64,000 nucleotides of DNA from Nitrosopumilus sp. (GTDB taxonomy: Archaea > Thermoproteota > Nitrososphaeria > Nitrososphaerales > Nitrosopumilaceae): positions 1,376,001 to 1,440,000 of the forward strand of contig OZ250186.1 of the NCBI GenBank assembly GCA_965238275.1. Reading direction: 5' to 3'. Position numbers and translations under genes: made by a program. This document shows, piece after piece, positions 9,179 to 11,356 of the stretch (position 1 is its first letter; each line of letters starts with the position of its first letter). The notes below the pieces were generated by a model, which worked only from the letters and a program-made list of their open reading frames with translations, was not told the DNA's origin and made no database searches.

Positions 9179-10092
9179 GCGACATATTTGAGATTCTCCG
9201 CGGCGTGCCAGGAGAGCCTGACTATGAACGAAAGGGCGTGATAGTGCAGGGCATTACAGGCGCGTACGGCTCGCTGCACACGAGAAACATGATTGCCTAC
9301 GGGACAAACGTTGTGGCAGGCGTGACTCCCGGAAAGGGGGGGCAGAAGTTTGATGGCACCATTCCAATATACAATACCGTGCAGGAGGCAGTGGCCGCTA
9401 CCGGCGCGGCAATATCGGCAGTGTTTGTTCCTGCCAAGTTCTTTTTGCCTGCCGCGCACGAGGCACTGGGTGCGGGAATCAAGCTGTTTGTCGCGATTCC
9501 CGAGCACGTGCCGGTCCGGGACACCATGACTGTCCTTGACATTGCAGAACAAAAGGGCGCGATAATCATCGGGCCCAACACGCCCGGAGTCATGATTCCG
9601 GAGGTGATTAAGATTGGAATCATGCCGCCCACCCCGTTCAAGATGGGCAGGATTGCCGTGCTCTCCAAGAGCGGCACCCTGCTGTACGAGATATCTGACG
9701 CCCTGACCAGCGCCGGGTTCGGCCAGTCCATCACGATTGGGATAGGCGGGGATCCTGTGAACGGCACCAGGCTTGTGGACGCATTCGAGATGGTAAAGGA
9801 TTCGCCGGACCTTGACGGGCTGGTGATAGTAGGCGAGATAGGGGGGGACTCCGAGGAGATCCTGGCCCAGAGGATAATGGATTGCGGGTTTGACAAGCCT
9901 GCCGTGGCATACATTGCAGGAAGGGCGGCGCCCAAGGAGAAGAGGATGGGCCATGCAGGCGCCATAGTGATGGGGACGTACGGCTCTGCCGAGTCCAAGA
10001 TATCCATGTTCAACAAGGCAAACATCCCGGTGGCCAAGAGGCCCGCAGAGGTGCCCGTGCTTCTTGCAGGAAAGATGGGCAAATCCGATTAG
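9175..10092 (+). CDS. sucD: succinyl-CoA synthetase alpha subunit
   Basis: VQGITG, GVTPGKGG, IGPNTPG, GIGGDP, RMGHAGA (phospho-His). Confidence 0.96.
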   Translation: MSDIFEILRGVPGEPDYERKGVIVQGITGAYGSLHTRNMIAYGTNVVAGVTPGKGGQKFDGTIPIYNTVQEAVAATGAAISAVFVPAKFFLPAAHEALGAGIKLFVAIPEHVPVRDTMTVLDIAEQKGAIIIGPNTPGVMIPEVIKIGIMPPTPFKMGRIAVLSKSGTLLYEISDALTSAGFGQSITIGIGGDPVNGTRLVDAFEMVKDSPDLDGLVIVGEIGGDSEEILAQRIMDCGFDKPAVAYIAGRAAPKEKRMGHAGAIVMGTYGSAESKISMFNKANIPVAKRPAEVPVLLAGKMGKSD

Positions 10093-10122
10093 AATAAAAG
10101 AGAGGAATCCGGGAAGAGTCTG

Positions 10123-10334
10123 ATGCCTGTTACTGATCCTGAAAAGAAGCGCATAGCGCAGAATGCCCGCCTTATCATGCAGATATGCTTCAACTGCGGG
10201 TGCAGAAACGACATCAAGGCCACGCGGTGCAGAAAGTGCAGGAACAATGATGATGGTAGCGGCACGGCTTCTGCGTGGTTCTCAGACGGCCGTACCTGCG
10301 GCTCAAGAACCGCAACATGGGCGCCAAAAAGTAG
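10123..10334 (+). CDS. rpl40e: 50S ribosomal protein L40e, interrupted by a 44-nt insert (10246-10289)
   Basis: 10123-10245 MPVTDPEKKRIAQ...CFNCGCRN...RCRKCRN plus 10290-10334 PYLRLKNRNMGAKK* join into a canonical 55-aa L40e. Confidence 0.9.
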
Positions 10335-10586
10335 ATTCTGAACCGGTCGTTTTCAGGAATACGGTTCTGGTCAGTTTTAGCGATTAGTTTACCAAAATTT
10401 TACAGCAAGGCTCGACGTGCAGTAAACTCGCCTTGGATCACGGGTTTTGCAATTAATTACAAGAGACTCATTTTGGAATACTTTTGGCAAAGTACCGTCA
10501 TATGGCAAAATCGAATTCGTAGAAGATCCCAAAGTTCATTTTTGAACAATGAACGGCAGAGATCACTCGAATTTACGAGCCATCTG

Positions 10587-10799
10587 CTACTTGAGAAAGT
10601 CTTCGCGTGTCAATCCCGACTGCGTGATTATGGATATCAGAGTTCCTTTCTTCATCTCCTTCCTTTGCGGGATTGTGACCTTATGTTTCCCATCTGTCAT
10701 GTACATGTGGCTTCCGGTTTGTCCGGTCTGCCAGAACCCATGCTTGCGCAGTATGCTCAGAATGTCTCTTGATGACAGAACGGGTAATTTTCTAGACAC
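10587..10799 (-). CDS. hicA: HicA-family toxin
   Basis: ILRKHGF..GQTGSH.YM, VTIP..KE.KKGTL.SI. Confidence 0.9.
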   Translation of the reverse strand: MSRKLPVLSSRDILSILRKHGFWQTGQTGSHMYMTDGKHKVTIPQRKEMKKGTLISIITQSGLTREDFLK

Positions 10800-11016
10800 T
10801 GATCTCGATCACTTTGCTTTTTTTGGTGTTTTGTAGCATCTCCTTTTCTTCTGGAAACGATTCAAAATAACCATTCACGGCATCAGTCATCATCTCTGCA
10901 AGTTCTGATTCTGTCTCAGCTTGAGTTATGATTCCCGGAAATTCTATGCATTGCGCGCTAAATCCGCCTTCGTCTTCACTGCGTACCGTAAAAGAGAGCC
11001 TGCTTTTCTGTTTCAT
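10792..11016 (-). CDS. hicB: short HicB-family antitoxin
   Basis: EDEGGFSAQCIEFPGIITQAETESEL..M..DAV; overlaps the hicA start; TTTTATAC box about 25 nt upstream of the ATG. Confidence 0.88.
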   Translation of the reverse strand: MKQKSRLSFTVRSEDEGGFSAQCIEFPGIITQAETESELAEMMTDAVNGYFESFPEEKEMLQNTKKSKVIEISV

Positions 11017-11056
11017 GAATATGTTGGTCGGACGTAGTATAAAATCAATTGTTTCC

Positions 11057-11187
11057 GTAACTGTTCGGTTTCCCGAAGTCACCTCATGATCTAGGCACGA
11101 ATCTATCATGGAACGACCGTTTTTATCGGCAAAACGTGATTTTTTCGTGCCTGTGGTTGGTTTTACTTCGGGAAACCGATCAGTTAC
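11057..11187. mobile_element. 131-bp MITE (IS66-like ends)
   Basis: 23-bp TIRs GTAACTGTTCGGTTTCCCGAAGT / ACTTCGGGAAACCGATCAGTTAC (22/23 match); 8-bp TSD TTGTTTCC at 11049-11056 and 11188-11195. Confidence 0.9.
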
Positions 11188-11356
11188 TTGTTTCCCGCAG
11201 TTCTTCTGCAAACGCGGGCGCTGATTCAAGATGCTGCACGGAAGCGCACAGCTTGGAGATACTATAGGAACAACGGGCATGCCTGTTTCATTCTTATTGG
11301 GAAATAATCAATGCCGTGGCAGATTGCGTTTTGACATATGGGCAGTCATCCGGGTT

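Follow-up and report, generated by a model that had tools for sequence, protein, structure and literature searches.

A 44-nt stretch of transposase coding DNA interrupts the single-copy rpl40e gene in one Nitrosopumilus assembly

In the Nitrosopumilus sp. assembly studied here, the only gene for ribosomal protein L40e (rpl40e) is split by 44 nt copied from the interior of a transposase gene that belongs to a multi-copy insertion sequence (IS) of the same genome. The donor, the direction of copying (from the IS into rpl40e) and the anatomy of the junctions can be read from the genome and its relatives, and the insert is absent from the relatives with a match and from independent DNA that is an exact match to the window on both sides. 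By the window, we mean the whole 64,000-nt stretch that was analyzed (G000:C1:1376001-1440000), which lies in a complete, single-contig genome of 2,216,668 bases. The 44 nt are very probably a DNA-level copy of the IS piece that is neither spliced out nor bypassed. Their anatomy is that of a templated (filler) insertion, in which two template switches are guided by microhomology.

Results

The rpl40e gene and its interrupted frame

The insert occupies window positions 10246-10289 and lies on a codon boundary of rpl40e, with base 10245 closing codon 41. An earlier sequence-only reading of this DNA had described an exact, frame-breaking 44-nt insert at a codon boundary whose removal leaves an undamaged 55-aa L40e. 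Both the sequence and the relatives bear this out, and the protein that is restored by removing the insert has the form found in 19/19 relatives with a match. The features of the locus are as follows.

10123..10245, + strand: rpl40e codons 1-41, the N-terminal part with the four-Cys zinc ribbon (NCBIfam NF003161; 80-93% identity to 19 relatives)
10246..10289, + strand: the 44-nt insert, a copy of IS positions 508-551, which are nt 367-410 of the transposase CDS (13 identical IS copies; gap in the closest relative, G017)
10244..10290, + strand: the 47-nt stretch identical to the donor, comprising the insert and its two junction microhomologies, left AC and right C (blastn-short)
10290..10334, + strand: the last 14 codons and the stop of rpl40e, encoding the conserved basic tail, now out of frame (translation, tblastn)

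As it stands, the open reading frame starts at ATG 10123 and stops at 10339-10341 (10123..10341, + strand, in the ORF listing), giving a product of 72 aa. This product consists of L40e residues 1-41, 15 residues of the insert read in the transposase frame and a 16-residue out-of-frame tail. The four-Cys zinc ribbon is kept, and 31 unrelated residues stand in place of the conserved basic C-terminal tail of L40e.

The gene carries the marks of its family, namely a profile match, the four-Cys zinc ribbon and, once the insert is ignored, the basic tail. In the profile search, NF003161 (50S ribosomal protein L40e) matched residues 6-40 with an E-value of 5.5e-11 and a score of 41.8 bits, which is below the cut-off of 54 bits because only 35 of the 49 profile positions are present. 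When translated from 10290-10331, the tail shares 11-13 of its 14 residues with the tail of the relatives, and tblastn places it in a second frame. Pfam family PF01020 matched rpl40e only weakly (13 bits against a cut-off of 23) and is a poor detector for this lineage; therefore, the check for a second copy, which the earlier reading had proposed, was repeated with tblastn. Neither the profile search nor tblastn found a second rpl40e in the genome, the split locus alone being significant, so that the gene is single-copy. The next-best tblastn matches had E-values of at least 0.003 and 32-35% identity and lacked the Cys pattern.

The pair of cut points is unique, since a shift by one base alters the joined sequence (A10246 versus C10290; C10245 versus G10289). 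No target-site duplication was seen at the insert junctions or in the alignment with G017, in agreement with what had been noted from the sequence at the outset.

The insert is a piece of an IS transposase gene

When the genome was searched against itself with blastn-short, positions 10244-10290 matched 13 other places with 47/47 identity, an agreement far beyond chance. All 13 lie at the same internal position of one IS (506-552), inside its transposase ORF. One further copy, in a partial IS, matched at 45/47 with a 2-nt gap. The proposed search for other copies of the insert thus returned 13 exact copies and one with a 2-nt deletion, every one of them within an IS. This IS is 1,354 bp long, is bounded by 18-nt terminal inverted repeats (TIRs; positions 1-18 and 1337-1354) and is present in 13 full and two partial copies. 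The full copies are 97.7-100% alike and align without a gap over 1,354 nt. Its transposase of 386 aa belongs to the DDE_Tnp_1 family (PF01609, E 7e-22), and relatives of the IS were found in chromosome-level MAG records labeled Nitrosopumilus sp. or Cenarchaeum sp.

In the donor, the copied piece is read straight through, in frame, in the middle of the transposase ORF. Among 25 related loci, 22 carry the homologous segment, which is identical in 6 and diverged in the others; the remaining 3 of the 25 comprise a degenerate locus, a locus that falls short of the segment and a locus without a match. The segment is therefore native to the transposase family, and the IS was the source of the copy, with rpl40e as the recipient. 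That rpl40e reads these 44 nt in the same frame as the transposase does is a coincidence. With 100% identity to the IS copies, the insert bears no sign of age; the feature is either an ordinary, very recent insertion or an artefact.

Donor and recipient share microhomology of AC (2 nt) at the left junction and of C (1 nt) at the right. Looser similarity extends into the flanks, with TGCAG offset by 2 nt on the left and 4/6 bases alike on the right. The locus thus has the hallmarks of a templated insertion: a donor in the same genome and microhomology at both junctions, with the target not duplicated and terminal repeats absent. Transposition of an IS or a miniature inverted-repeat element (MITE) was also considered and set aside, as the insert borders carry no TIRs and the target site is not duplicated.

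Relatives and homologues lack the insert

A DNA search of 40 relatives gave matches in 18 of 24 genomes of the same genus and in 1 of 16 genomes of other families within the order. In the closest relative, G017 (87% identity), the matches to query positions 1-186 and 231-275 abut, so exactly window positions 10246-10289 are absent there. The alignment with G017 is collinear apart from one clean gap of 44 columns, at 10246-10289. Comparison with sister genomes had been suggested from the sequence, and its outcome was uniform: in each of the 19 relatives with a match, the 55-aa L40e is encoded without interruption and has the conserved tail at its end, and the insert was found in 0/19.

The protein collection gave the same picture. 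Among 43 homologues, none had extra residues at the insert site. The canonical tail is present in 41 of them; of the other two, one is truncated to 44 aa and one has a different tail. These homologues occur under the labels Nitrosopumilus sp. and Cenarchaeum sp. The strain's exact intact 55-aa allele was absent from the 16 cluster representatives and from the 31 of 45 members listed, and the closest of the homologues listed had 36/41 N-terminal identities. Taken together, the abutting matches in G017, the 19/19 relatives and the 43 homologues establish the insert-free gene as the ancestral state.

The homologue with the different tail, P0009, is a 61-aa L40e that combines a normal zinc ribbon with a C-terminal tail of quite another kind, and it may represent a further case of a frameshifted rpl40e, in an unrelated assembly.

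Insert-free contigs in independent public runs

Twenty-two public runs were considered, none of them on record as RNA, and four from four studies were compared as contigs. In 4/4 runs, a contig joins position 10245 directly to 10290 and so skips the 44 nt, and either insert junction was seen in 0/4. The contigs from two of these runs, X1 (a 1,360-nt record) and X3 (a 1,059-nt record), agree with the window at every base of 9921-10245 and 10290-10700 (0 mismatches). In both, the sole cover of 10244-10290 is a contig with IS flanks. The insert is likewise missing from X6 and X9, which represent related strains whose contigs show 2-11 differences each.

The IS contig is 16-20x deeper than the rpl40e contig (97.5 versus 4.97; 436.5 versus 26.9), a ratio that fits the 13-15 genomic copies of the IS and points to DNA. 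The longest records in these runs reach 70-105 kb. Although the run type is unrecorded, the depth ratio and the record size indicate that the insert-free contigs come from DNA and not from RNA.

The best three runs keep 0.94, 0.94 and 0.92 of the sampled words. By script, 57 of the 971 31-letter words hinge on the insert junctions, so that a loss of these words only would leave an expected share of 0.941, which the shares of X1 and X2 match. In a collection of about 15 billion proteins, the 72-aa product is recorded from a single contig, that of this genome itself. An exact scan of metagenome contigs with the 31-base left flank common to both alleles returned 0 stretches. The insert is private to this assembly. 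The sequence-only reading had taken reads lacking the insert as the sign of an artefact; at the contig level, the insert is indeed missing from 4/4 runs, which may not be the source of the assembly.

RNA structure and motifs

The region 10200-10330 folds at -41.6 kcal/mol (z = -0.42), and 67/200 shuffled sequences were at least as stable. The pairings of the insert with both exons, to which attention had been drawn earlier, are therefore no better than chance. Rfam gave 4 matches at E-values up to 10, all far below their gathering thresholds and none near threshold, and the sole one that touches the insert is Hammerhead_HH9 (13.6 versus 52 bits). The C-box-like ATGATGA (10247-10253) is present as described; its meaning as an RNA motif fell away, as these letters are the transposase codons AAT GAT GAT GGT (N-D-D-G). 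The D-box motif CTGA is absent from 10246-10289, which holds CAGA only, and there are no C'/D' boxes in the 44 nt. With no CUGA D box, no Rfam match and no excess structure, the suggestion of an L7Ae/K-turn-regulated insert found no support.

In a relaxed screen of 592 cut pairs over 10225-10310, 7 candidates resembled the bulge-helix-bulge (BHB) motif. All of them delete zinc-ribbon Cys codons, and L40e is not restored.

Surroundings of rpl40e and repeats of the genome

Upstream of rpl40e lie two subunits of a succinyl-CoA-synthetase-type ligase. Downstream, at window 10587-10799 on the - strand, a 70-aa ORF belongs to the HicA toxin family (PF07927, E 2.2e-13). It is overlapped by a 162-aa ORF (10792-11280, - strand) that lies upstream of HicA in the position of an antitoxin and gave no Pfam match at E 0.001. 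In the intervening 10335-10583, the X6 and X9 contigs diverge right after the rpl40e stop, with loose ends from 10334 and no cover of 10346-10515; the X1 and X3 contigs continue past rpl40e identical to the window. The HicA region seems to be strain-specific. Further along, window 11056-11196 (G000 1387056-1387196) holds 141 nt that are 97.9% identical to part of a 1.4-kb repeat elsewhere, the second IS-derived fragment within 800 nt of rpl40e.

At the scale of the genome, 535 repeat islands cover 492,841 of 2,216,668 bases (22%) at an identity of at least 80%, and IS-sized families (1.2-1.8 kb, 5-20 copies per family) are numerous. Four sharp patches of 31-49 nt (G000:C1 446280-446324, 874101-874149, 1302569-1302609 and 1691463-1691493) match the interior of a multi-copy element at 100% identity, the element being a different one in each case, and sit in unrelated surroundings. 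They could be further templated pastes or decayed IS remnants. The self-comparison gave 103 k-mer candidates of short exact repeats, most of them inside decayed IS remnants, and 13 isolated patches. Two of the isolated patches were compared with five relatives, in which the regions are too diverged for comparison. A candidate for an ORF-merging paste at G000 196565 proved to be the end of another IS.

Two further kinds of repeats were observed. Series of 30-36-nt repeats with a pitch of about 74 nt, matching between the two loci, occur at G000:C1 976318-976643 and 1246128-1246278 and look like putative CRISPR arrays. In addition, about a dozen repeats of 98-134 nt, whose identity reaches 100% and which either stand alone or form part of larger repeats, occur at positions such as G000:C1 652684, 744627, 1081905, 1090433, 1092323, 1110862, 1472054 and 1720884; this family is possibly a MITE.

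Discussion

Weighing the explanations

An exact frame-breaking insert in a protein gene invites an explanation at the level of RNA, and the sequence-only reading had listed a non-canonical spliced intron among its options. The transcript would then contain the insert, and the splicing endonuclease would excise it at a non-canonical BHB and so restore the L40e frame. Removal of the insert does restore the frame and the conserved protein exactly, and archaeal pre-mRNA introns exist, for example in cbf5 (accessible text of PMC2738675). According to the same text, both cuts in a BHB fall between the second and third bulge residues; placed accordingly at 10245/10246 and 10289/10290, the motif scores 0/4 central-helix pairs, 0 outer-helix pairs and 0 inner-helix pairs, which agrees with the earlier failure to draw a canonical BHB at these junctions. 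Moreover, the fold is unremarkable (z -0.42), the sequence is an in-frame transposase CDS, 0/19 relatives carry the insert and the insert-free joint stands in contigs with DNA-like features in 4/4 runs. An intron is thus highly improbable, and this option of the earlier reading is not supported. Alternatively, the ribosome might bypass the 44 nt or shift frame, so that functional L40e is still made. In the bypass of T4 gene 60, the ribosome crosses a 50-nt gap between matched take-off and landing codons, with a stop after the take-off codon. The gap in rpl40e is in the range of that length, and one register has near-matching Arg codons (AGG 10240-10242 and AGA 10284-10286). However, the register that restores L40e pairs take-off AAC (10243-10245) with landing CGG (10287-10289), a mismatch; the codon after take-off is AAT and not a stop; and no local hairpin is stable beyond chance. 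An insert with 100% identity to the IS is too young to have evolved a function, and an insert-free DNA allele exists. We give recoding only a marginal chance, and even when taken together, splicing and recoding are very unlikely. A mobile-element or integrase route would make the insert a miniature derivative of the IS or an IS-derived prespacer integrated ectopically as a CRISPR spacer. The donor is an IS, 44 nt is a spacer-like size and the genome has CRISPR-like periodic repeats with a pitch of about 74 nt (putative; G000 976318-976643). However, the piece (IS 508-551) is interior, about 500 nt inside the IS ends and far from the TIRs, and it has no inverted ends; the 44-mer was not found at unrelated sites, with all other copies inside the IS. 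Off-target spacer integration is expected to duplicate the target, and no target or repeat-length duplication flanks the insert. Such a route is scarcely credible, and adding it to splicing and recoding leaves the three jointly very improbable.

Two of the options raised from the sequence, a recent knock-out of the gene and a consensus artefact, survived. An artefact could have arisen in the library or the assembly, through polymerase template switching, a chimeric molecule, the assembler or the polisher; no cell would then carry the allele and the true rpl40e would be intact. The public runs speak for it, with the insert-free joint in 4/4 and an insert junction in 0/4, two contigs from two studies having 0 mismatches, and word shares (0.94, 0.94, 0.92) that fit a loss of the junction words only. 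The broken product is unique to this contig, the insert shows no sign of age at 100% identity to the IS, and L40e is a near-universal archaeal ribosomal protein that is single-copy here. The accessible text of one preprint treats a widely conserved ribosomal protein that is missing from a genome of more than 1 Mb as a red flag (bioRxiv 10.1101/2021.01.31.429008). The best-matching runs may also include the source sample, and if one of them does, the insert is at most a minority variant there. On the other hand, the runs that were compared may not be the source of the assembly, and contigs drop rare variants, hence showing presence and not absence. The 13 IS copies, ungapped over 1,354 nt, make the assembly look base-accurate and free of indels in its hardest regions, so random indel error is not the cause of the insert. 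Assemblers rarely create a 44-nt insertion from a distant locus via 1-2 nt of homology, and an in vitro origin needs two template switches within 44 nt, as rare as the in vivo event. The repeat-rich genome, with 493 kb (22%) in repeats of at least 80% identity, also favors a real allele, as does the documented ability of the archaeal PriSL primase (PMC12019639) to use discontinuous templates under the guidance of microhomology. We therefore regard an artefact as a serious prospect that falls somewhat short of an even chance. We infer that the insertion arose in cells and reached the consensus of one sampled population, and we put the odds of this at even.

A putative mechanism

If the insertion was made in cells, it may have begun with a break, or with a 3' end that stalled, at the boundary of codons 41 and 42 in the single-copy rpl40e. 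For its extension, the end would have used an ectopic template inside the transposase gene of the 1,354-bp DDE-type IS, and it would then have returned to rpl40e, with both switches guided by the AC and C microhomology and by the looser flank similarity. A possible agent is an archaeal PriSL-type activity that polymerizes across discontinuous templates, or a template switch during replication. The accessible text of PMC12019639 describes archaeal PriSL as annealing strands that share as few as two GC pairs and polymerizing across discontinuous templates; it also gives most of the indels reported in S. islandicus as 1-2 bp. The outcome would be a private rpl40e allele with the zinc ribbon kept and the basic tail swapped, while the strain's ordinary gene is intact in other data sets. 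A wider version, in which the paste is real, the tail-less allele stands at consensus frequency in one population of an IS-rich (22% repeats), ammonia-oxidizer-like archaeon and the other 31-49-nt patches stem from the same recurrent process, is tentative, its chances being a little below even.

For the record itself, the 72-aa annotation of rpl40e is unwarranted, and the gene should not be called lost before the source reads have been checked. A false lead was also removed, since one search of the insert against its own genome showed an intron-like sequence to be transposase coding DNA. Should the allele be real, it would serve as a small natural test of whether L40e can do without its basic tail, and as an archaeal case of ectopic templated insertion, a repair outcome known chiefly from eukaryotes.

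Comparison with known systems

The locus recalls several known systems to different degrees. With box C/D sRNAs and K-turns, it shares a RUGAUGA motif (ATGATGA, 10247-10253), but it has no CUGA D box, no C'/D' boxes and no Rfam family near threshold. As in the T4 gene 60 bypass, a coding gap of a few tens of nt breaks the frame of an otherwise intact ORF; unlike in that system, the take-off and landing codons do not match in the register that restores L40e, and an adjacent stop and conservation are both lacking. Typical chimeras and misassemblies of long-read metagenomes join long segments once. The rpl40e insert resembles them in being a private structural difference that lacks independent support and involves a high-copy repeat, and differs from them in its two switches 44 nt apart within a locus that is otherwise perfect. 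Archaeal BHB introns such as that of cbf5 (accessible text of PMC2738675) are likewise short inserts in protein genes whose exact removal restores the frame, but the insert in rpl40e has no BHB, is not conserved in relatives, consists of transposase coding DNA and is missing at the DNA level from contigs otherwise identical to the window on either side of it.

Templated (filler) insertions are products of microhomology-mediated end joining, in eukaryotes of Pol theta-mediated end joining, as set out in the accessible parts of PMC12663940 and PMC8654963; the archaeal candidate is the PriSL primase (PMC12019639). In a literature search on templated insertion, microhomology and archaea, the matches listed concerned eukaryotes or genome editing, with no archaeal ectopic case among them. 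The rpl40e insert departs from these products in that its donor is a distant multi-copy IS gene and not DNA adjacent to the break, and in that the enzyme and the in vivo origin are only candidates here. In other respects it is like them: it is a verbatim short stretch from elsewhere in the genome, it has 1-2 nt of microhomology at both junctions, it has neither terminal repeats nor a target duplication, and the intact ancestral allele is still present.
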